DNA of 64,000 bases, taken from assembly GCA_045589235.1 (NCBI GenBank), contig JAZNOR010000001.1:2503-66502 (forward strand), given 5' to 3'. The number at the start of each line of letters is the position of its first letter. Position 1 is the first letter of the stretch. The translations under genes were made by a program, and so were the position numbers. The notes beneath the pieces were generated by a model. It made no database searches and was not told the DNA's origin. It saw only the letters and a program-made list of their open reading frames with translations. Of the stretch, positions 2,105 through 33,039 are shown one piece after another. The stretch is from Eubacteriales bacterium (GTDB lineage Bacteria; Bacillota; Clostridia; Oscillospirales; JAAYXM01).

Positions 2105-3139
2105 ATGAAAAAAGTAGGAATAATCGGAGCTACCGGCTACGGCGGCGTTGAGCTTGTTCGTCTCTTGCTCGACCATCCGGCAGTTGAGCTTTGCAAATTA
2201 AGCTCCGTTTCATTTGAGGGTAAAAAGATATCCGATGTTTACCCAACTCTTTATACGATTTGTGACGATACACTAAGAGGTCAGGACGAGGTTGTAAATA
2301 GCTGTGATATTATTTTCGCTGCTCTTCCGCACGGTCTCTCTCAGCCACTTGCAAAGCAGTGCGACGAGAAGGGAATCTTGTTTATCGATTTAGGTGCAGA
2401 CTTCCGCCTTGACGATGAAGATGTTTATAAAAAATGGTATGGCTGTGAGTTTGAGGATAAGGAACTTCAGGCAAAATCAGTTTATGGCCTTTGCGAATTC
2501 AATCGTGAGCAGATTAAAAAGACAAATATTATCGCAAACCCGGGCTGTTATCCAACATCGATTGCCCTTGGTTTATATCCGGCACTTAAGAATAAAATGT
2601 GCAAGACTACGGGTATTATCATCGACTCAAAATCCGGCGCAACCGGTGCCGGCAGAAGTCTTACACAGAACACTCATTTTACCGAGCTAAACGAAGGCTT
2701 TGCTCCGTATAAAGTTGGCAAGCATCGCCACACTCCGGAAATTGAGCAGACTCTCTCAAAAATGTCAGGCGAGGATGTTAAGGTTACTTTCGTTCCTCAT
2801 CTTCTGCCGATAAACCGCGGAATTGAATCCACAATTTATGTGGATAAAAACGGCGATTATACATTGCAGGAGCTCCGCGATTTGTATGTTAAATTCTATA
2901 AAGACGAAAAATTTGTTACCGTTCTGCCACTTGGTAGCGCAGTTAATCTTCGAAATGTCAGAATGACAAATCAGTGCCAGATTTCGTTGCACGAGGATGA
3001 GCACACGGGCAAGATTATAATTGCATCGGTAATTGACAATATGGTTAAAGGTGCCGCAGGACAGGCTATTCAGAATATGAATATAGCTCTCGGAATTGAC
3101 GAGGATACCGCACTTCCGATTCTTGCACCGGCATTTTAG
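2105..3139 (+). CDS. argC: N-acetyl-gamma-glutamyl-phosphate reductase
   Basis: 344 aa. Has a GATGYGG Rossmann motif and an active-site NPGCYPT motif. Sits in the arg cluster. Confidence 0.95.
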   Translation: MKKVGIIGATGYGGVELVRLLLDHPAVELCKLSSVSFEGKKISDVYPTLYTICDDTLRGQDEVVNSCDIIFAALPHGLSQPLAKQCDEKGILFIDLGADFRLDDEDVYKKWYGCEFEDKELQAKSVYGLCEFNREQIKKTNIIANPGCYPTSIALGLYPALKNKMCKTTGIIIDSKSGATGAGRSLTQNTHFTELNEGFAPYKVGKHRHTPEIEQTLSKMSGEDVKVTFVPHLLPINRGIESTIYVDKNGDYTLQELRDLYVKFYKDEKFVTVLPLGSAVNLRNVRMTNQCQISLHEDEHTGKIIIASVIDNMVKGAAGQAIQNMNIALGIDEDTALPILAPAF

Positions 3140-7362: not shown

Positions 7363-7394
7363 AAAAAAGCAACTTCGTTTAGAAGTTGCTTTTT
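7363..7394. terminator. bidirectional hairpin between argF and the convergent LysM-GH18 gene
   Basis: AAAAAAGCAACTTC-GTTTA-GAAGTTGCTTTTT. An A-run lies on one side and a T-run on the other. Confidence 0.8.
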
Positions 7395-8662
7395 ATATTA
7401 TAAAGTGCATTTAATACCAGCCAGTTTTGAGGAAATGCACGCATTGCATTCCAATACCCTGCACCGCGCAGAGAATATTTAGGGATTAGCGCAAGCTTTG
7501 CCGCAATTGAGCGTGCATCCTCAAACCATACTTCATGTGCACGACCGAGAGAATCAATATAGTTAAAAAACGGAGTTTGCGAGTAGTCGTCAAAGAATAT
7601 TTCAGCGCCGTAACGCGCGGCGAGAGCTATTGCCTCCTGACTTGAAATGGACGGTGCGCGCGACGAGCCTTGAATATAGGGCAGCGTCCAGTCGTAGCCA
7701 TAGTTTGGAACCCCTAAAAATATTTTATTTGCAGGAATTTCGGTCAGGGCATATTCTAAAACTGCGCGCACATTGGGAAGCGGTGCAACCGCAAGCGGAG
7801 GGCCGTAGGTATATCCCCATTCGTAAGTCATAAGTAAAACTGCATTTGCCGCCTCTCCCAAAGCTTTGTAATCGTGTCCCTCATAGAGAAGACCGCGCTG
7901 AGTTGCTGAAGTTTTTGGCGCAAGAGCAACGATTACCTCATAGCCTTCTGCATTTAGCCTGCGCGTGGCGTTTCCGACAAATGCGGCATATAGCGGCGCT
8001 TCTTCAGGGAAAATAAATTCAAAGTCAATGTCGAGCCCGCGGTATCCTTTGTCAATCATCGTAGTAAGAACATTGTTGATTAAAATATTTTGCAGATTTA
8101 TATTATTTAAAATAACACTTGCAAGCTCGTTGCTGAAATTTCCGTTTTCAGTAAGGGTAGATAAATGCATAAGTGGCGCAGTTTGGTATTCATTTGCCGT
8201 CTCAATTAAAAACGCGTCGTTTAAATCAACTAAAGTGCCCTCTTCGGTAAATCCGTATGTAAATGGAGTTAAGTAAGTTAAATAAGGGAGTGTCTGCCTA
8301 AGTAAGCTTTCGTTTATAAACGGGTATGCATATGCATTTACATCCATTTCGTAAGTTTTCTCACCGCGGTATGAAATAACAATAGTCTCACCGGGGAAAA
8401 TATTTTCTTCACCGCGCAAACGGATGTTGTTTCGGTATAGAGTATTGAGTGAAACGCCGTAAAGGTTTGCAATTGAGCGCAGAGTATCACCGGGTCGGAC
8501 AGTGTGTATTTGCTCGGGAAATAAAATAACAAGAACCTGACCTACAACAAGGGGCTGATTTTGTGGCAATTCGTTATTGTATATAATTGAGCTCTCGGTA
8601 ACACCGTAAAGTCTTGCTATTGAAAATACGGTTTCGCCTGCGCGTACAATGTGCAACTCCAT
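7379..8662 (-). CDS. LysM-LysM-GH18 spore peptidoglycan hydrolase (YaaH/SleL-like)
   Basis: Two N-terminal LysM repeats (GETVFSIARLYGV, GDTLRSIANLYGV) are followed by a GH18 fold with DIDFE. I place the start at MELHIV (8662) because SD GAGGTGG lies 5 nt upstream. The track start at 8671 is a GTG inside that SD. Confidence 0.8.
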   Translation of the reverse strand: MELHIVRAGETVFSIARLYGVTESSIIYNNELPQNQPLVVGQVLVILFPEQIHTVRPGDTLRSIANLYGVSLNTLYRNNIRLRGEENIFPGETIVISYRGEKTYEMDVNAYAYPFINESLLRQTLPYLTYLTPFTYGFTEEGTLVDLNDAFLIETANEYQTAPLMHLSTLTENGNFSNELASVILNNINLQNILINNVLTTMIDKGYRGLDIDFEFIFPEEAPLYAAFVGNATRRLNAEGYEVIVALAPKTSATQRGLLYEGHDYKALGEAANAVLLMTYEWGYTYGPPLAVAPLPNVRAVLEYALTEIPANKIFLGVPNYGYDWTLPYIQGSSRAPSISSQEAIALAARYGAEIFFDDYSQTPFFNYIDSLGRAHEVWFEDARSIAAKLALIPKYSLRGAGYWNAMRAFPQNWLVLNALYNIKSNF

Positions 8663-8663
8663 A

Positions 8664-8701
8664 AAAACCACCTCTACATAAATTTATGCAGAGGTGGTTT
8701 T
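8664..8701 (-). terminator. long hairpin plus U-tract after the TIGR01440 gene; its 3' arm contains the SD of the next gene
   Basis: The minus-strand RNA reads AAAACCACCUCUGCAUAAAUUUAUGUAGAGGUGGUUUUU and is followed directly by the AUG at 8662. Confidence 0.65.
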
Positions 8702-9367: not shown

Positions 9368-10159
9368 ATGGTAATTCGTTTGAAAAAGCGAAGTGTTTTT
9401 GTTGTGGCGCTCATACTCGCGCTTACACTTGCAACCACATTTTTAGGAAATAATGAAACAGTAACGGTAAATTCGGAAATAACAAATTGGGGCTTAAGCT
9501 TTGGGAAAGAGGGAGAGGCACCGCGTGGAAATGCAAGTGCGGAATCACTTTCTGAATATGATGCGTATTTTATCGATACTACAGATGAGAAAAAATTATA
9601 TTTAACCTTTGATGCAGGGTTTGAAAACGGCTATACACCGCAGATTCTAGATGTGTTAAAGGCGCACGATGTTAAAGCTACCTTCTTTCTCGTTTCAAAT
9701 TATATAGACACGGCACCTGAGCTTGTCCGACGAATGGTTGAGGAGGGGCACACGGTTGCAAACCACACTGCATCACATCCGGATATGTCAAAAATTGAGA
9801 GTAAAGAAAGCTTTTTAAAAGAGCTGTGTACACTGGAAGAAAAATATAAAGAAGTTACAGGTAAGGAAATGCAGAAAATCTACCGCCCACCGCAGGGAAA
9901 ATTCAGCACACAGAATTTAACGTTTGCACAGGAATTAGGATATAAAACCGTTTTTTGGAGTCTCGCGTATGTAGATTGGTATACGGATAATCAGCCAACG
10001 CGTGAGATGGCGTTTTCAAAACTTATTCCGCGAACTCATCCGGGTGCGATCGTGTTGCTACACAGCACTTCAAAAACAAATGCTGAAATTTTAGATGAGC
10101 TTTTAACGCGTTGGGAGAATGCAGGCTTTAGAATAGCACCGATTGACGAGCTTTTTTAA
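9368..10159 (+). CDS. pdaA: polysaccharide deacetylase, PdaA-like (delta-lactam-biosynthetic de-N-acetylase)
   Basis: 263 aa with a signal or anchor sequence. NodB-fold motifs are LTFDAGFENGYTP and HTVANHTASHP. Length and motif order match PdaA. Confidence 0.8.
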   Translation: MVIRLKKRSVFVVALILALTLATTFLGNNETVTVNSEITNWGLSFGKEGEAPRGNASAESLSEYDAYFIDTTDEKKLYLTFDAGFENGYTPQILDVLKAHDVKATFFLVSNYIDTAPELVRRMVEEGHTVANHTASHPDMSKIESKESFLKELCTLEEKYKEVTGKEMQKIYRPPQGKFSTQNLTFAQELGYKTVFWSLAYVDWYTDNQPTREMAFSKLIPRTHPGAIVLLHSTSKTNAEILDELLTRWENAGFRIAPIDELF

Positions 10160-13160: not shown

Positions 13161-13418
13161 ATGAACAGAATTGCACTTATCGGAATTATAGTTGAAGATG
13201 GAAGTTCAACGGCAAAATTAAATGAAATTCTGCACGAATATGCGGAATATATTGTCGGCAGAATGGGTGTGCCGTACAGAGACCGCGGAGTGTGTATTAT
13301 AAGCATAATCGTCGATGCGGAAAATAACATAATCAGCGCAATGTCGGGAAAGCTGGGTCAGCTTCCCGGTGTTCAGATCAAAACCATGTATGCAAAGGCA
13401 GGCGATGCGAATGGATAA
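13161..13418 (+). CDS. TM1266-family putative iron-only hydrogenase system regulator (small ACT/ferredoxin-like fold)
   Basis: 85 aa. Begins MNRIALIGIIVED... and carries GVPYRDRGVCIISIIVDA, both typical of the family. It lies directly upstream of hydE, and its stop overlaps the hydE start. Confidence 0.72.
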   Translation: MNRIALIGIIVEDGSSTAKLNEILHEYAEYIVGRMGVPYRDRGVCIISIIVDAENNIISAMSGKLGQLPGVQIKTMYAKAGDANG

Positions 13419-14364
13419 AGAAAAGCTTGCGTCGGCAATCTCACAAGAAGATTTCAGCGAATATTACAGTAAAGCGCATAAAGTATGTCGTGAAGTTAAA
13501 GGCGATGTTGTTCATCTGCGCGCGATAATTGAATTTTCAAATTATTGCCGAAGAAACTGCGCATATTGCGGTTTAAATTGCGAAAATGCAAAGCTAACTC
13601 GTTACCGTATGGAGCCCGAGGAAATAATTGATGTCGGAATCCGAGCGCATCGCGCAGGTTATAAAACGCTTGTAATGCAGTCGGGGGAAGACCCGTATTA
13701 TACACGTGAAATGATTGGCGAAATTGTTAAAGAGCTAGCTGCAGAGGGCATTATAATAACCTTAAGCTGTGGCGAGAGAGAAGAGGAAGAATATAGGTAT
13801 TGGAAAGAGTGTGGAGCCCATCGCTATCTTTTAAAGCACGAAACGGCAAACAGTGAGCTCTATGCAAAATTGCATCCCGGATATACATTGGATGCGCGAA
13901 TAAACTGTCTGCGCGCAATTAAGAAAGCGGGATATGAAACAGGAAGCGGTTTTATGATTGGTCTTCCAGGGGAGACGTCTGAGAGCATAGCAGATAATAT
14001 TTTGCTTTTAGATGAGCTGGATTGCGATATGGCGGGAATCGGTCCGTTTATACCGCATCCCGATACGCCGATGAGGAATGCACATCCCGGTTCTGTAGAG
14101 CTTACTCAGCGAGCAGTGGCGCTCACACGAATTATGCGCCCCTTTATGAATCTACCGGCAACGACGGCGCTTGGAGTTCGCGACATGGCGGCAAGAGAGA
14201 ATGTTTTTTCGCGCGGTGCGAATGTAATTATGCGCAAGGTAACGCCGGAGCCGTATAAGTCATTATATGAAATTTATCCCGCAAAGCTTTCGAAAACAGA
14301 TATAAAAAAAGAGCGAGAGGAGCTTTGTGAGTTCATAAAAAGTCTGGGTAAAATACCCGAATAA
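13411..14364 (+). CDS. hydE: [FeFe]-hydrogenase maturase HydE (radical SAM)
   Basis: Has the radical-SAM CxxxCxxC motif (CRRNCAYCGL). It is BioB-like and sits in hydE-hydG context. The start is chosen at ATG 13411, which overlaps the upstream stop. The track start at 13369 is also possible. Confidence 0.88.
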   Translation: MDKEKLASAISQEDFSEYYSKAHKVCREVKGDVVHLRAIIEFSNYCRRNCAYCGLNCENAKLTRYRMEPEEIIDVGIRAHRAGYKTLVMQSGEDPYYTREMIGEIVKELAAEGIIITLSCGEREEEEYRYWKECGAHRYLLKHETANSELYAKLHPGYTLDARINCLRAIKKAGYETGSGFMIGLPGETSESIADNILLLDELDCDMAGIGPFIPHPDTPMRNAHPGSVELTQRAVALTRIMRPFMNLPATTALGVRDMAARENVFSRGANVIMRKVTPEPYKSLYEIYPAKLSKTDIKKEREELCEFIKSLGKIPE

Positions 14365-14376
14365 AGGAGAATAAAT

Positions 14377-15795
14377 ATGTATAACAGCAAATCAAAAAAC
14401 GCAGTTGAATTTATAAGCAACGAGGAAATTTTAAAAACAATAGCTTATGCAGAAGAAAACAAGGGGAATAAAGCACTTTTAAAGGAAATTCTTGAAAAGG
14501 GAAAGCTTTATAAGGGCTTAAATTACAAAGAGGCAATTACCCTTCTTTTAAGCGACGACGCAGAAATTCAGAATGAAATGTTCGAGCTCGCAATGGAGAT
14601 TAAGAGAAAAATTTACGGCAACAGAATTGTTATGTTTGCCCCTCTTTACTTATCAAATCACTGTGTTAACGGATGTCGCTATTGCCCGTATCACTACGGC
14701 AATAAATGTATCGCACGCAAAAAATTAACCCAAGAGGAAATTAAGCGCGAAGTAATTGCACTTCAGGATATGGGACATAAGAGACTTGCGCTTGAAACGG
14801 GTGAGGACCCGGTAAATTCTCCGATTGAATATGTGCTCGAGAGCATTAAAACAATTTACGGAATCCATCATAAAAACGGTGCAATACGCCGTGTTAACGT
14901 AAATATTGCGGCGACAACAGTTGAAAATTACAGAAAACTCAAAGAAGCAGGAATCGGTACTTACATCCTTTTCCAGGAAACATATGATAAGGAGCGCTAT
15001 GAATATCTCCATCCGACCGGACCTAAGCACAACTATGCTTATCATACCGAGGCTATGGACCGCGCTATGGAGGGAGGAATTGATGATGTCGGCATCGGCG
15101 TACTTTTCGGGCTTTCAGACTATCGTTATGACTTTATCGGGCTTTTGATGCATGCACAGCACTTAGAGGACACATTCGGCGTAGGACCGCACACAATCAG
15201 TGTTCCGCGTATTCGACCTGCTGCGGATGTTGACCTTACCGAATATCCGAATGCGATTGACGACGAATTATTCAGAAAGCTTGTTGCAGTGCTCAGAATC
15301 GCCGTCCCGTATACAGGAATTATTATTTCAACACGTGAATCTGAGCAATCAAGAGCTGATGTATTAAAGGTTGGCGTTTCGCAGATAAGCGGAGGCTCAT
15401 CCACAAGTGTTGGCGGATATGTTGAAAAAGAAAAGGAAGAGGAGAATTCCGCGCAGTTTGAGGTTAACGATACACGCACACTTGATGAAATTGTAGGCTG
15501 GCTTATGGAGCTTGGATATATGCCGTCGTTCTGCACTGCGTGCTACCGAGAGGGAAGAACGGGTGACCGCTTTATGCAGCTTGCAAAAACAGGTCAGATT
15601 GCAAATGTCTGCCAGGCAAATGCAATTATGACGCTCAAGGAATATTTAGAGGATTACGCGAGCGATAACACAAAGAAAATCGGCGAAAAGCTCATTGCAG
15701 AGGAATGCACACGTATCCCGAATGAAAAAGTTCGCGCAACTGTTGAAGAGCATTTATGTGACTTATCTGAAGGAAAACGCGACTTCAGATTTTAA
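14377..15795 (+). CDS. hydG: [FeFe]-hydrogenase maturase HydG (radical SAM tyrosine lyase)
   Basis: 472 aa. Has an N-terminal CVNGCRYCPY cluster motif and a C-terminal CTACYR cluster motif. It is ThiH-like. Confidence 0.93.
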   Translation: MYNSKSKNAVEFISNEEILKTIAYAEENKGNKALLKEILEKGKLYKGLNYKEAITLLLSDDAEIQNEMFELAMEIKRKIYGNRIVMFAPLYLSNHCVNGCRYCPYHYGNKCIARKKLTQEEIKREVIALQDMGHKRLALETGEDPVNSPIEYVLESIKTIYGIHHKNGAIRRVNVNIAATTVENYRKLKEAGIGTYILFQETYDKERYEYLHPTGPKHNYAYHTEAMDRAMEGGIDDVGIGVLFGLSDYRYDFIGLLMHAQHLEDTFGVGPHTISVPRIRPAADVDLTEYPNAIDDELFRKLVAVLRIAVPYTGIIISTRESEQSRADVLKVGVSQISGGSSTSVGGYVEKEKEEENSAQFEVNDTRTLDEIVGWLMELGYMPSFCTACYREGRTGDRFMQLAKTGQIANVCQANAIMTLKEYLEDYASDNTKKIGEKLIAEECTRIPNEKVRATVEEHLCDLSEGKRDFRF

Positions 15796-16005
15796 GCTGA
15801 GTGGCATCGAACCCCTTAAGGTTTAAAAAACTAAATTTTGCGAAATACTGCATAAAATTCCTCGAACATACGACAGTATAGTTCTCAAATTTTATTTGTC
15901 TTTCAACAAAATTTATTGTTTTTTAAACTACATTTTTTAATACAAAAAAATAACAAAAGCAAGACTTGAGTGGTTCGACACCACTCAACTTTAGGAGGAG
16001 TTTTT

Positions 16006-17187
16006 GTGTCACTTAACCAGACCCCAAGTGGAAACAGACTTCACATAACGATACTCGGCCGCAGAAACGCAGGAAAATCAACGCTTATAAATGCACTTGT
16101 CGGTTCAGATGTTGCGATAACATCGCCGTATGCGGGAACAACTGCTGATCCTGTGAGCAAGGCGTATGAATTGCACCCAATTGGCCCGTGTCTTATAACC
16201 GATACCGCAGGATTTGATGATGAGGGTGAGCTCGGCGCACTTCGTGTTGAAAAGACAAAAGCGGCACTTGATAAAACGGATATTGCAATTTTAGTTTTTG
16301 CAGATGAAGATATATCAGAGGAGCTTATTTGGCATAAGCTTTTAAATGATAAGAAAATTCCGACCATTTGTGTTGCAAATAAAAGCGATGTTGTGTCTAA
16401 TCTTTTAAAAAAATTAAAAGAGCAGGGGATAGATGCAGTTAAAGTTAGTGCGCTAAATAAAACGGGAATAGACGAGCTTAAAAATGCAATTGTGCGCGCT
16501 GTACCGTCGGATTACGATGCAATTTCACTTACAGGTCATTTAGTATCGCCAAATGATGTTGTGCTTCTTGTAATGCCACAGGACATTCAGGCGCCGAAGG
16601 GAAGACTTATTTTGCCGCAGGTGCAAACGATACGCGATTTGCTCGACGGACACTGTGTCGTAGTCTGCGCAACGCTTAAAGAGTACCCGAATGCGCTAAA
16701 TGCACTTAAAAATCCGCCTAAGGTTATAATTTGCGACAGTCAAGTGTTCCGCGAAGTATATGAAAAAAAGCCGGAGGGCAGTTTGCTTACCTCATTTTCC
16801 GTTATATTTGCAAATTATAAGGGAGATATCGAAGAATTTGTTCGCGGGGCTGAAGCGATATCAAGCCTCAAGCCGGGCGATAATGTGCTGATTGCCGAGG
16901 CATGCTTACACAATGCGCAAGACGGAGATATTGCGCGCGTTAAAATTCCGAACCTACTTCGCAAAAAGGTTGGCGGAGAGCTGAATATTGACGTGATAAG
17001 CGGAATGAGTTTTAACGATGATCTGTCAAAATATAAGCTTATCATCCACTGCGGCGCTTGTATGTTTAACAGAAAATATGTGCTGTCGCGAATAGAAAAA
17101 GCGAGAGAGGCGCAGGTTCCGATAACGAATTACGGAGTGGCACTTGCATATCTAACAGGCATTTTGCCGTATATTGAAGTAAAATAA
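16006..17187 (+). CDS. hydF: [FeFe]-hydrogenase maturation GTPase HydF
   Basis: Has the P-loop GRRNAGKST, DTAGF, NKSD and a C-terminal CxHx..HCGAC cluster motif. The start is set at GTG 16006, 7 nt after AGGAGG. The track start at 15970 lies inside a hairpin. Confidence 0.9.
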   Translation: MSLNQTPSGNRLHITILGRRNAGKSTLINALVGSDVAITSPYAGTTADPVSKAYELHPIGPCLITDTAGFDDEGELGALRVEKTKAALDKTDIAILVFADEDISEELIWHKLLNDKKIPTICVANKSDVVSNLLKKLKEQGIDAVKVSALNKTGIDELKNAIVRAVPSDYDAISLTGHLVSPNDVVLLVMPQDIQAPKGRLILPQVQTIRDLLDGHCVVVCATLKEYPNALNALKNPPKVIICDSQVFREVYEKKPEGSLLTSFSVIFANYKGDIEEFVRGAEAISSLKPGDNVLIAEACLHNAQDGDIARVKIPNLLRKKVGGELNIDVISGMSFNDDLSKYKLIIHCGACMFNRKYVLSRIEKAREAQVPITNYGVALAYLTGILPYIEVK

Positions 17188-23595: not shown

Positions 23596-24969
23596 TTATT
23601 TTGTCGGAAGATACTTTTCAATATACTCGGGCTTGATTCGCTTAAGCTCGCTCTTTGGAAGGATTGACAAAAGCTCCCAGCCGAGATTTAGCGTCTCTTC
23701 AATAGAGCGATTTTCGGTATAACCCTGATTTACGTAACGGCTTTCAAATTCATCTGCAAATTTTGCATAAAGCTTATCGATATCTGAAAGAGCCGCTTCG
23801 CCTAAAATTGTCATAAGCTCTTTTGCCTCTTTGCCGCGTGCATAAGCTGCAAAGAGCTGGTTCATTGTTCCGGAATGATCTTCGCGTGTTTTTCCTGCAC
23901 CGATACCCTTGTCTTTAAGACGAGAAAGTGACGGGAGAACATCGACCGGAGGCTGCATATCCTTGCGGTATAACTCGCGAGAGAGAATAATCTGCCCCTC
24001 GGTGATATAGCCGGTAAGGTCAGGAATCGGATGAGTCTTGTCATCCTCAGGCATTGAGAGAATCGGAATCATTGTGATTGAACCGGTGCTGTCAAGCGTT
24101 CTTCCTGCGCGCTCATACATAGACGCAAGGTCAGTGTATAAATAACCCGGATATCCGCGGCGAGAAGGGACTTCTTTGCGCGCTGCCGAAACTTCGCGTA
24201 GTGCTTCTGCATAGTTTGTGATATCAGTCATAATAACGAGTACATGCATATTCTTCTTAAATGCGAGATACTCTGCCGCGGTAAGCGCCATACGTGGAGT
24301 TGAAATACGCTCGATCGCCGGGTCAGATGCGAGGTTCACAAACATAACAGTTCTGTCAATAGCGCCGGTTTTCTTAAAGTCACTGATAAAGAAGTCTGCC
24401 TCTTCAAAGGTAATGCCGATAGCGGCAAAAACAACCGCAAACGGTGCATCACTGTTTAAAACCTTGGCTTGGCGCGCAATTTGAGCTGCAAGCTGAGCGT
24501 GCGGAAGACCTGAGCCCGAGAAAATCGGAAGCTTCTGCCCGCGAACCAAGGTGTTAAGACCGTCGATTGTTGAAACGCCGGTTTGGATAAATTCATCAGG
24601 GTAGTTGCGCGATGCAGGATTCATTGGCATACCGTTAATATTGCGGCGCTCATCGGCTAAAATCTCAGGTCCGTTATCGGATGGTCTGCCCATACCGTCA
24701 AAAACACGACCAAGCATATCTTCGCTTACTGCGAGTTCGATTCCGTGACCTAAAAAGCGCGCTTTGCTGTCAGCAAGGTTTATTCCTGCTGAGCTTTCAA
24801 AAAGCTGAACGAGTACGTCGTGACCGTTTACTTCAAGAACTTTGCAGCGACGAACTTCGCCATTGGGAAGCTCCACCTCGCCAAGCTCATCGTAAGAAAC
24901 GTCAACGACATTTTTCACGAGCATAAGAGGGCCTGCTACTTCCTGGATGGTACGATATTCTTTTAGCAT
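23596..24969 (-). CDS. ntpB: V-type ATP synthase subunit B
   Basis: 457 aa with the non-catalytic alpha/beta-type nucleotide-binding fold (SGSGLPH, PSLSRL). Confidence 0.93.
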
Positions 24970-28082: not shown

Positions 28083-28709
28083 TTAACCGAATAATATGTT
28101 GGCAACATCGCCGGACAAATCATCGCGCAGGTGCGAAACAATAGTTTCAAAAGAAGCGTCGATTTCAAGCGATCCCTCTTTTAAGATAAGACCGCCTTTG
28201 ATTTCACGCGTTTCGTCAGAAAGGCGAAGACCTTCTCCGCGTAAAAATTTGCCTGCGGTTTTAAGAATGCTATCGCCACTGAGACTTTTATTTACCTGTG
28301 CAACAACAGCTTTTCCATACTGCGCACGGTCAGCCTCGGAGAAAATAATCTCTTCATTTCCGCTTATTGTGGCAGAGAGTGCAAGATTTGTAAGCGTTTT
28401 TATATACTCTTCTTCACTGCACACTGTGAGCTTATTAATCGCTTCTTTAAAAGCGATGTCAATCATCTGCTGTTTTGTGCGAAGCAACATTTTGCGTGCC
28501 TCGAGTGATGCAACGCCACCAAGTCGTTCACAACGCTCATCCGAGAGTTTTTTGCCTTTAGCTAAAACTTCAGCCGCATCAGCTTCAGCGCGACCTGCAT
28601 ATTGCTCTTCAATTGCTTTGGCATCAGCTTCTGCACGGGCGCGAATTTCTTTTACTGTGTTTTCCGCATCATCTAAAATGCGTTTTGTTATGTTTTCAAT
28701 GCCGTTCAT
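28083..28709 (-). CDS. V-type ATP synthase subunit E
   Basis: 208 aa. An N-terminal Ala/Glu/Lys coiled coil is followed by a C-terminal globular part. The operon position fits. Confidence 0.85.
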   Translation of the reverse strand: MNGIENITKRILDDAENTVKEIRARAEADAKAIEEQYAGRAEADAAEVLAKGKKLSDERCERLGGVASLEARKMLLRTKQQMIDIAFKEAINKLTVCSEEEYIKTLTNLALSATISGNEEIIFSEADRAQYGKAVVAQVNKSLSGDSILKTAGKFLRGEGLRLSDETREIKGGLILKEGSLEIDASFETIVSHLRDDLSGDVANILFG

Positions 28710-28725
28710 ATGGCTTCATCCTTAA

Positions 28726-31613: not shown

Positions 31614-32015
31614 ATGACTGATTTTTTACACACAAAACTTTCGGAAAATGAAGTGTTTGGCATGAGCATGCTCGCGCTTGCCCACGTCGGTGACGCGGTA
31701 TACGATTTGCTTATTCGCACCAGGGAGTGTTCACTCGGAACACAGTCGGTTAAAACTCTGCACCGCAACACGGTAAAACTTGTCAGTGCAGTTGCTCAGG
31801 CTGAGGCCTCAGATAAAATATTGCCTCATTTAACTGAGCGCGAAGCGGATATTTTTCGCCGCGGGCGAAACACTAAAGTTAACTCACATCCGAAAAATGC
31901 GCCACTCGATGCGTACCACAAGGCTACGGCGCTTGAATGTCTTTTCGGTTATCTTTATCTTTTGGGAGAGTACGACAGGGTAAATGAGCTGTTTGAAATA
32001 ACTTTATCTATGTAA
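31614..32015 (+). CDS. mrnC: Mini-ribonuclease 3
   Basis: 133 aa. Motifs are LALAHVGDAVYDLLIR and FRRGRN. SD AGGTGG lies upstream. Confidence 0.88.
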   Translation: MTDFLHTKLSENEVFGMSMLALAHVGDAVYDLLIRTRECSLGTQSVKTLHRNTVKLVSAVAQAEASDKILPHLTEREADIFRRGRNTKVNSHPKNAPLDAYHKATALECLFGYLYLLGEYDRVNELFEITLSM

Positions 32016-32033
32016 GGTCGCGTTATGCGACCT
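32015..32033. terminator. GC hairpin shared by convergent mrnC and the micro-ORF
   Basis: AGGTCGC-GTTAT-GCGACCT. There is no strong U-tract on either side. Confidence 0.5.
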
Positions 32034-32174
32034 TTAGTACTGCTCGCGATTATCTTTTTTGTTTTCAAAATTATTTTCTTTCTTGTTCTGTTCGTTCTGC
32101 TTATTCTGGAAGTTGTTTTCCTTCTTATTCTGGAAATTGTTATTCTGCTTGTTCTGGTTATTTTCCTTAGACAT
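32034..32174 (-). CDS. unannotated 46-aa Gln/Asn/Lys-rich tandem-repeat micro-protein
   Basis: My own translation of the minus strand gives MSKENNQNKQNNNFQNKKENNFQNKQNEQNKKENNFENKKDNREQY. SD AAGGAGA (complement of 32183-32189) lies 8 nt upstream. It is below the track cutoff. The + strand ORFs here are its low-complexity complement. Confidence 0.55.
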   Translation of the reverse strand: MSKENNQNKQNNNFQNKKENNFQNKQNEQNKKENNFENKKDNREQY

Positions 32175-32322
32175 TTTCATTTTCTCCTTAATCTTTATTG
32201 CAAGTTGTTCCTTGCAAGTGCTATTTTGTGCACAAAACTTTGTTATTATTCATACTTGAAAAGGATATACAAAGTATGTTAAAATAAAATTTACTAAAAG
32301 TATTAATGTAAGGAGTTTTACA

Positions 32323-33039
32323 ATGTCCGGTCATTCTAAATGGAAAAATATTCTTCATAAAAAAGAAAAAACAGATGCACAACGTGCAAAAATATTCACA
32401 AAAATAGGTCGTGAAATGGCAGTTGCCGTTCGCGAGGGTGGTCCTGATCCTGTTTCCAACTCAAAGCTTCGCGACTGTATCGCAAAAGCTCGCGCAAACA
32501 ATGTGCCGAATGATAACATCAAACGCATTATTGAACGCGCATCAGGTGACGGTGCAACCTATGAAACCATTACCTACGAGGGTTACGGTCCAAGCGGTAT
32601 TGCCGTTATCGTTGAGACTATGACTGATAACAGAAACCGTACTGCAGGTGATGTCCGCCATTATTTTGATAAATTCGGTGGTAACCTCGGTGCTACCGGC
32701 TGTGTTTCCTGGCAGTTCGACCAGAAGGGTGTTATTGTCATAGAAAAAGGCGATACTGATGAAGACGAAATGATGCTTGCATTTTTAGATGCAGGTGCGG
32801 ATGATATTGATATGGAGGGCGAAGTATATCAGGTATTCACAAAGCCTGAAGATTTCTCAGCCGTTCGCGAGGCACTTGAATCTGCTAACTATCCTATTTT
32901 AGATGCAAACATAGAAATGGTTCCGCAAAACTATGTCGAGCTTTCATCTGAAGACGATATTAAAAATATGCAAAAATTACTTGATGCACTCGAAGATAAC
33001 GACGATGTGCAGAATGTGTACCACAACTGGGAGGAGTAA
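32323..33039 (+). CDS. yebC: YebC/PmpR family DNA-binding transcriptional regulator
   Basis: 238 aa. The N-terminus [23 protein letters not shown] is diagnostic. Confidence 0.93.

Follow-up and report, generated by a model that had tools for sequence, protein, structure and literature searches.

A short asparagine-, glutamine- and lysine-rich gene divergent from yebC in uncultured gut Clostridia, probably encoding a new kind of small spore protein

SASPs (small acid-soluble spore proteins) are products of sigma-G-dependent genes, and SASPs of the gamma-type have not been found in Clostridia (PMC8452069). The gamma-type proteins have been proposed to act as a reserve of amino acids at germination (PMC8452069, PMC10730256). 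Outside the Bacillales, only alpha/beta-type SASPs (SspF, Ssp4) and Tlp-like SASPs have been reported, and the distribution of the minor SASPs is lineage-restricted (bioRxiv 10.1101/2022.02.25.481979). C. difficile furthermore produces GerG, a spore-associated protein with Asn-rich, gel-forming repeats of variable copy number, which is predicted to be disordered and prion-like (PMC5241399). Here, we describe a micro-gene of 46 codons, which is located between mrnC and yebC in a 64-kb stretch of DNA (64,000 nucleotides of contig JAZNOR010000001.1, assembly GCA_045589235.1; hereafter the window) from an Eubacteriales bacterium. As judged from its promoter and its genomic context, the gene is likely to code for a small spore protein of a new kind. 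All coordinates refer to the whole window unless a relative's locus is named, and the elements of the micro-gene, which are listed below, are read on the minus strand.

32034-32174, minus strand: coding sequence of a 46-amino acid (aa) Asn/Gln/Lys-rich micro-protein (based on open reading frame (ORF) calls, orthologous ORFs in 15 further distinct loci and public gene calls)
32097-32157, minus strand: internal tandem repeat with the unit (E/N)NNF(Q/E)NK(K/Q), 2.5 copies (Tandem Repeats Finder)
32183-32189, minus strand: Shine-Dalgarno (SD) motif AAGGAGA, 8 nt ahead of the ATG at 32174 (sequence)
32198-32217, minus strand: perfect 7-bp stem-loop TTGCAAG-N6-CTTGCAA in the 5' untranslated region (UTR), at the 5' end of the predicted transcript (folding)
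32222-32228, minus strand: -10 element CAAAATA, sigma-G/sigma-F-like (motif kept in 14 distinct loci)
32247-32251, minus strand: -35 element GAATA, separated from the -10 element by a spacer of 18 nt (motif kept in 14 distinct loci)
32015-32033, no strand assigned: GC hairpin AGGTCGC-N5-GCGACCT, bidirectional terminator-like and common to the micro-gene and the convergent mrnC (folding)

The coding sequence extends from the ATG at 32174-32172 to the TAA at 32036-32034 and encodes the peptide MSKENNQNKQNNNFQNKKENNFQNKQNEQNKKENNFENKKDNREQY, in which Asn accounts for 35%, Gln for 15% and Lys for 20% of the residues and which lacks aliphatic residues after Met1. With 48% Asn plus Gln, the ORF ranks highest among the 955 window ORFs of at least 20 aa, the runner-up being a 21-aa ORF with 33%, and it is not a chance feature, because this value far exceeds that of all other ORFs of the window, whose ordinary genes contain 4.5% Asn and 2.2% Gln. 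The peptide is very hydrophilic, slightly basic and of low complexity, and neither a signal peptide nor a hydrophobic segment was found in its sequence. An imperfect repeat of 8-9 residues, which had been described in an earlier note made from the letters of this DNA, was recovered by Tandem Repeats Finder as a 24-nt period (8 codons) with 83% matches. The three repeat units are distinguished by several synonymous differences (AAT/AAC, TTC/TTT, AAG/AAA) and a few replacements (N/E, Q/E, K/Q). The ORF listing starts at an upstream in-frame ATG (32034-32180, minus strand, 48 aa), which the earlier note had considered as a start adding Met-Lys to the protein; this start was rejected, since no more than 2 nt separate it from the SD motif and since the closest relatives (L161, L162 and L169; L numbers designate the loci of relatives) have ACG or ATA in its place, and the protein is hence taken to comprise 46 aa.

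Relatives of the micro-gene were found by synteny. Using YebC as an anchor, 80 genome and 80 metagenome loci were collected (YebC 62-77% identical, about 1.8 Mb), in which all ORFs were scanned by composition, and a YebC protein search yielded 17 loci of closer relatives, whose YebC is 79-96% identical to that of the window; the DNA analysed thus comprises the 64-kb window and relatives' loci of about 3-7 kb. The composition scan detected small Asn/Gln-rich ORFs in eight places only, namely in the window and in L001, L002, L021, L031, L078, L133 and L148, and all eight are located directly upstream of yebC and divergent from it. Altogether, 15 further distinct versions of 37-107 aa occupy this slot, next to YebC proteins with 63-96% identity. 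In each of the seven lineages with at least 79% YebC identity, a minus-strand gene of 40-64 aa is called in the mrnC-yebC gap; with such public calls in 17 of 17 close loci, the minus-strand gene at 32174-32034 put forward in the earlier note is genuine, and the positions it gave for the SD motif, both hairpins, the promoter elements and two plus-strand ORFs were all verified. The versions of the close lineages are as follows.

L161, YebC 96% identical: peptide MAKENNQNKQNNNFENKKNNNFQNKNEQNKKENNFENKKDNNKQY
L162 and L169-171, YebC 94-95% identical: peptide MSKENFQNKQNNNYQNKKDNNNFQNKNEQNKKDNNSFENKKDNNKQY
L172-175, YebC 88% identical: peptide MDKYNQQNKKDSNSKNQKDNNNFQNKKDNNNSQNKKDNNNLQNKRNQNEQY
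L163-168, YebC 89% identical: peptide MSKNRKMSENNQAQQKQQQNQNAQNKQQQNAQNKQQQNQQF
L176, YebC 85% identical: peptide of 48 aa
L177, YebC 79% identical: peptide of 62 aa

Together with the window peptide, the lengths in the close lineages are 46, 45, 47, 51, 41/40, 48 and 62 aa. Repeat length is polymorphic even within a species: L165 (1168-1290) and its conspecifics L163, L164, L167 and L168 (1165-1290) encode identical YebC proteins and differ by one CAG codon in the micro-gene (40 vs 41 aa), in addition to synonymous AAA/AAG and TTC/TTT changes. L031, which keeps mrnC as a neighbour, carries a 107-aa version (2477-2800, minus strand) with extra Ser/Trp/Tyr-containing repeats (..QNSWNFDNSQ.. twice), and as judged from these repeats, it shows that the length of the family can more than double through repeat expansion. 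The downstream neighbour is the convergent mrnC in the window, and elsewhere HPr-like, dinB-like and other genes are found, each after a terminator. The carriers are metagenome-assembled genomes of uncultured gut Clostridia labelled Oscillospiraceae, Acutalibacteraceae or 'Eubacteriales', and the shared slot demonstrates that the gene is positionally orthologous throughout a clade of uncultured Oscillospirales-type Clostridia of the gut.

What is kept and what drifts in these versions argues for a protein-coding function. The earlier note had named frame-breaking indels between relatives as an observation that would speak against the gene; the indels in the DNA alignment of close relatives measure 3, 3, 3 and 12 nt, and only differences of 3n were found. 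Differences between orthologs are most frequent at codon position 3, followed by positions 1 and 2, and Gln is encoded by 84 CAG and 3 CAA codons, compared with a ratio of 73:27 in the genes of the window. The window peptide shares only 31-60% sequence identity with distant members. Across the 16 versions, the mean composition is 34.7% Asn, 20.3% Gln, 13.3% Lys and 8.2% Ser with 0.6% Gly; the family is almost free of aliphatic residues, Pro and Gly, and the net charge ranges from +2 to +5 in all 16. A start of the type M-[SAPND]-K is kept across the family, and 13 of 16 versions carry an aromatic residue at the C-terminus or adjacent to it (-QY, -NY, -QF, -CF, -AF). Comparative sequence analysis thereby demonstrates a genuine gene with protein-level constraint on composition, frame and ends.

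The signals that flank the coding sequence are likewise kept. Equivalents of the SD motif (AAGGAG, GAGGTGA, AGGAGG) precede the ATG by 6-9 nt in all 16 distinct versions. The terminator-like hairpin abuts both the stop codon of the micro-gene and the end of mrnC and folds at -13 kcal/mol on the minus strand (z = -5.0 vs shuffled controls) and at -14.8 kcal/mol on the plus strand. On the minus strand of the window, it is not followed by a T-run; such a run is present in most distant orthologs. All 16 distinct versions have a hairpin behind the stop codon; a strong one is found within a few nt of it in nearly every ortholog and about 45 nt downstream in L021. The stem-loop of the 5' UTR folds at -8.9 kcal/mol (z = -4.4 vs shuffled controls), and among 15 orthologous UTRs of at least 40 nt, 10 likewise begin with a predicted hairpin. 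Its pairing is maintained despite a G-U change in L161 and different stem sequences in L172, L002 and L177, and it may stabilize the mRNA. With its promoter, strong SD motif, short reading frame and terminator, the locus displays the gene grammar of an ssp-type unit, as far as sequence signals can establish it.

The locus could also be read as something other than a protein gene, namely as a low-complexity repeat of the AAC/CAG/AAG type, a small RNA, a Phe/Leu-rich gene on the plus strand or a leader peptide sensing Asn, Gln or Lys. In most versions, neither sense frame +1 nor the direct antisense frame contains a stop codon, and protein searches do not return homologs, which would agree with such a reading; however, start codon, SD motif and stop codon with hairpin are kept in every lineage together with the reading frame, and a search of positions 31900-32400 with the Rfam 15 covariance models gave no match at E ≤ 1. 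We therefore regard a non-coding or antisense origin as very improbable. The two plus-strand Phe/Leu-rich ORFs (32025-32282 and 32059-32259), which the earlier note had already taken for by-products, were rejected as genes. The antisense frame is open solely because the complements of the sense codons AAY, CAG, AAR and GAR do not form stops; wherever a TTA or TCA codon occurs in the sense frame, as in L172, L177 and L002, stops interrupt it, and it lacks an SD motif. A leader peptide or attenuator was also rejected, as the terminator follows the ORF and the neighbours are convergent or unconserved: each downstream neighbour lies behind the terminator and differs or converges, so that there is nothing to attenuate.

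The lack of homologs in protein collections says little about this question. The peptide gave no match in Pfam at E ≤ 1 and no relevant match in NCBIfam at E ≤ 10, the single row being a meaningless TatA hit with E = 3.4, in agreement with the earlier note, which had recognized no known family. Neither a phmmer-type search of 5.8 billion clusters nor a full HMMER search of 1.84 billion representatives returned anything, none of 13 exact family sequences was present in a collection of 15 billion proteins, and a search with a profile of seven members retrieved only P0001, the JGI-called product of L133 with an extended start. Exact look-ups of the MrnC and YebC proteins of the window did not match any contig. 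However, the versions with public gene calls (40-64 aa) are likewise missing from the 15-billion-protein collection, and the collections seem to omit products this short. The empty searches are therefore uninformative and no evidence of rarity, since even called versions are missing and the composition correction of HMMER suppresses such sequences; negative results for micro-protein homology in these collections should not be taken to mean absence. The micro-genes form a new, unannotated family, which is recognizable by its synteny and its promoter grammar.

The promoter provides the main indication of when the gene would be expressed. In B. subtilis, the sigma-G consensus is GHATR-N17/18-CATXHTA, and sigma-F recognizes a -10 region of the type GGnnAnAHTR. 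In C. difficile, the consensus sequences of sigma-F and sigma-G closely resemble their counterparts in B. subtilis, and an upstream G is a mark of sigma-F (PMC3789822). The 14 distinct loci share the motif G[A/T]ATA-N17/18-[C]AnA[A/C]TA: all 14 have the -35 element G[A/T]ATA at a distance of 17-18 nt as well as invariant A, A, T and A positions in the -10 element, 12 have the leading C, and a G is located 3 nt upstream in 11 of 14. The micro-gene promoter thus matches the sigma-G consensus and, with the upstream G, that of sigma-F as well. A strict pattern, G[ACT]AT[AG]-N17/18-CAnnnTA, occurs in 12 of the 14 loci and, with a relaxation by one base, in all of them. In a both-strand background of 1.89 Mb, the strict pattern occurs 90 times, which corresponds to about 0.006 per 120 nt (about 0.02 for the relaxed pattern), and the nominal binomial probability of the observed counts is about 1e-25, a value that assumes 14 independent loci, some of which are closely related. 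When an SD-preceded ORF is required within 250 nt downstream, 21 pattern matches are left, of which six belong to the micro-gene family. In the alignment of close relatives, the coding region varies, whereas no variation is seen in the blocks TGAATAATAA...TG..CAAAATA and TTAAGGAG. The promoter is the best-conserved element of the locus, so that the resemblance to forespore-type promoters noted earlier holds in all 14 loci and its description as weak does not. One other strict match with a close SD-preceded ORF is present in the window, at 23626 on the minus strand (GTATA-N18-CAAAATA); it is located inside an operon, 13 nt before the gene for V-ATPase subunit D, and is probably due to chance.

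The same promoter letters bear on where the product would act. Coat and cross-linking proteins are produced from mother-cell promoters read by sigma-E or sigma-K, whose -10 elements are of the type CATACA-T or CATA---TA. A sigma-E/K promoter was rejected for the micro-gene, since position 6 of the -10 element is T in 14 of 14 loci, not A, and since the spacing differs as well. This argues against the idea that the peptide belongs to the spore envelope, where it would undergo transglutaminase-type epsilon-(gamma-glutamyl)lysine cross-linking or form a GerG-like Asn-rich gel matrix. The envelope idea draws on a composition rich in both Gln and Lys, on the C-terminal aromatic residue kept in most versions and on the precedent of GerG with its gel-forming Asn-rich repeats, whose copy number varies (PMC5241399). 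However, a forespore product with neither a signal peptide nor a hydrophobic segment would be expected to remain in the core, and we consider an envelope protein improbable.

Alternatively, the micro-protein might be real but not spore-specific: it could be a vegetative or stress-induced protectant (osmotic, desiccation or stationary-phase) or a small regulator that binds a larger partner, the likeness to sigma-F/G promoters being coincidental or due to another alternative sigma factor. All of the coding evidence applies equally to this reading, and a single-sequence AlphaFold2 model of the window peptide predicts one long helix (residues 4-45, pLDDT 81), as in many small binding proteins. The promoter of yebC, which lies back to back with that of the micro-gene, could furthermore mean co-regulation with a housekeeping, translation-related gene. 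However, the conserved letters (GAATA/GTATA, 17-18 nt, CAnA[A/C]TA, upstream G) are those of a forespore sigma factor and not of sigma-70, no sigma-70-like site was found on the strand of the micro-gene, and the binding of a specific partner by a regulator is unlikely to tolerate the drift in sequence, repeats and length (37-107 aa). A function outside the spore is thus rather unlikely, although it is more probable than an envelope role. The predicted helix itself was given little weight, because it was obtained in single-sequence mode and because its amphipathic aromatic spacing is unconserved among orthologs; the stripe of Phe residues that it implies in the window peptide is displaced in L162, owing to indels, and L002 and L177 lack it.

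Further context comes from two other genes of the window, in line with the remark of the earlier note that other spore genes are present.

9368-10159, plus strand: PdaA-like delta-lactam de-N-acetylase (289 bits vs an NCBIfam cutoff of 298)
7379-8671, minus strand: protein with two LysM domains and a GH18 domain, a YaaH/SleL-like architecture

Both functions are typical of the spore cortex and point to an organism that forms spores. The forespore-type motif upstream of the pdaA-like gene is only partial (GTATA-N18-TATAGTA) and does not support the promoter reading.

How does the micro-protein compare with the described systems? It resembles the gamma-type SASP SspE of Bacillales in its monocistronic organization, its strong SD motif, a predicted promoter of the sigma-G type and an architecture typical of abundant proteins, as well as in its Gln/Asn-rich composition, internal tandem repeats and poorly conserved sequence. 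Unlike SspE, it is much shorter (46 aa), lysine-rich, net basic and clostridial, and it has neither sequence similarity to SspE nor a motif for the protease GPR; the gamma-type models PF04259 (SASP_gamma) and TIGR01442 were not matched in the Pfam and NCBIfam scans. Minor SASPs of Bacillus (SspH-SspP, Tlp) are also hydrophilic, dispensable, monocistronic forespore proteins of 34-70 aa, and they are transcribed by sigma-G or, in some cases, sigma-F. The micro-protein is not homologous to them and is of far lower complexity, and the Pfam and NCBIfam models for SspH, I, J, K, L, M, N, O, P and Tlp gave no match; the same is true for the alpha/beta-type SASPs (PF00269), which possess two DNA-binding helices. 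With GerG, it shares its clostridial origin, the richness in Asn and variable repeats. GerG, however, is much larger (its prion-like domain alone spans residues 43-270), contains functional non-repeat regions, acts on how Csp germination proteins are incorporated and is specific for C. difficile, and no similarity to the micro-protein was detected. Finally, the extreme hydrophilicity, the low complexity and the probable flexibility are reminiscent of hydrophilins and of protectants resembling late embryogenesis abundant (LEA) proteins, and protection of a dehydrated compartment is plausible. Hydrophilins are defined by a Gly content above 6% and a high hydrophilicity index; the Gly content is 0% in the window peptide and 0-4% across the family, the hydrophilicity being obviously high, and in contrast to LEA proteins, LEA motifs are absent from the micro-protein. 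As sequence membership failed for every named family, the relation to SASPs would be one of working alike rather than of belonging to them.

Taken together, the micro-gene is best read, by analogy, as a monocistronic gene for a forespore-expressed hydrophilic micro-protein, which would be analogous but not homologous to the minor or gamma-type SASPs, and we estimate the probability of this reading at roughly 0.6. The gene would be transcribed late in sporulation inside the forespore, and its product, after efficient translation, would be stored in the core of the spore. Like the non-DNA-binding SASPs of Bacillus, which comprise the gamma-type and minor SASPs, it would serve there as a nitrogen-rich depot of Asn, Gln and Lys, to be released by proteolysis at germination; alternatively or in addition, it might fill or protect the dehydrated core by virtue of its hydrophilicity. 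If its function depended on composition and not on sequence, this would explain why the repeats grow, shrink and drift freely while composition, charge and frame are fixed.

Several observations weigh against this interpretation. GPR cleaves at motifs of the type E-[FIY]-[AG]-S-[ED], and a regular-expression scan found this motif in 0 of 16 family members. The peptide is basic rather than gamma-SASP-like in sequence, and the predicted helix fits poorly with a simple 'disordered filler'. The assignment of the promoter is a match to a consensus, the PdaA-like protein scores slightly below its NCBIfam cutoff, and the genes for sigma factors, gpr and the ssp genes lie outside the DNA analysed. Moreover, the micro-gene is absent in many relatives, for instance in L003, whose YebC is 77% identical, and since so many relatives do without it, it is dispensable.

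The surroundings of the micro-gene comprise two neighbouring genes and a second promoter.

31614-32015: mrnC, convergent with the micro-gene (Pfam Ribonuclease_3)
32323-33039: yebC, divergent from the micro-gene and located upstream of it (Pfam TACO1_YebC_N and Transcrip_reg)
32256-32285, plus strand: sigma-70-like promoter of yebC, TTGAAA-18-TAAAAT with a TG motif (sequence)

The -35 elements of the two promoters lie back to back: TTGAAA of yebC (32256-32261, plus strand) is separated by 4 nt from GAATA of the micro-gene (32251-32247, minus strand), and the arrangement TTTCAAG-N3-GAATA is kept in close relatives. Such a layout might be the reason for the tight linkage to yebC, and mutual exclusion of two polymerases is a possibility. 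yebC is followed by a gene resembling cofactor-independent phosphoglycerate mutases, and a V-type ATPase operon is found beyond mrnC. Among its minus-strand genes, a 209-aa Ser/Arg/Pro-rich ORF on the plus strand (28096-28725) is probably an antisense artefact of an unlisted V-ATPase gene. At 13369-17187 on the plus strand, three consecutive genes encode a radical-SAM protein, a protein of 472 aa and a GTPase-like protein of 405 aa; they look like putative [FeFe]-hydrogenase maturases HydE, HydG and HydF, the Pfam match being to the radical-SAM domain only.

The biology of spores beyond Bacillus and C. difficile is poorly known, and surveys of Clostridia list alpha/beta-type and Tlp-like small spore proteins only, with no gamma-type storage protein (PMC8452069; bioRxiv 10.1101/2022.02.25.481979). 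It is tempting to speculate, as a tentative extension of the analogy to SASPs, that the micro-protein might be the first gamma-SASP-like component of clostridial spores: an Asn/Gln/Lys-rich, core-packed member of a lineage-specific, non-homologous family from the forespores of uncultured gut Oscillospirales, which would store nitrogen and amino acids and might also contribute to dormancy as a matrix that forms a gel or glass, and which would have been invisible to annotation due to its small size and low complexity. Genes of this class are missed by standard pipelines, as they are very short, of low complexity and shadowed by longer antisense ORFs; here, recognition was achieved via the grammar of promoter, SD motif and terminator together with synteny, not via sequence similarity. 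The finding is not categorically new and will mainly be of interest to spore biologists and annotators of small proteins. If the interpretation as a forespore protein is true, abundant uncultured gut commensals would possess a new spore component, which would be a candidate for nitrogen storage or for the organization of the dehydrated core.

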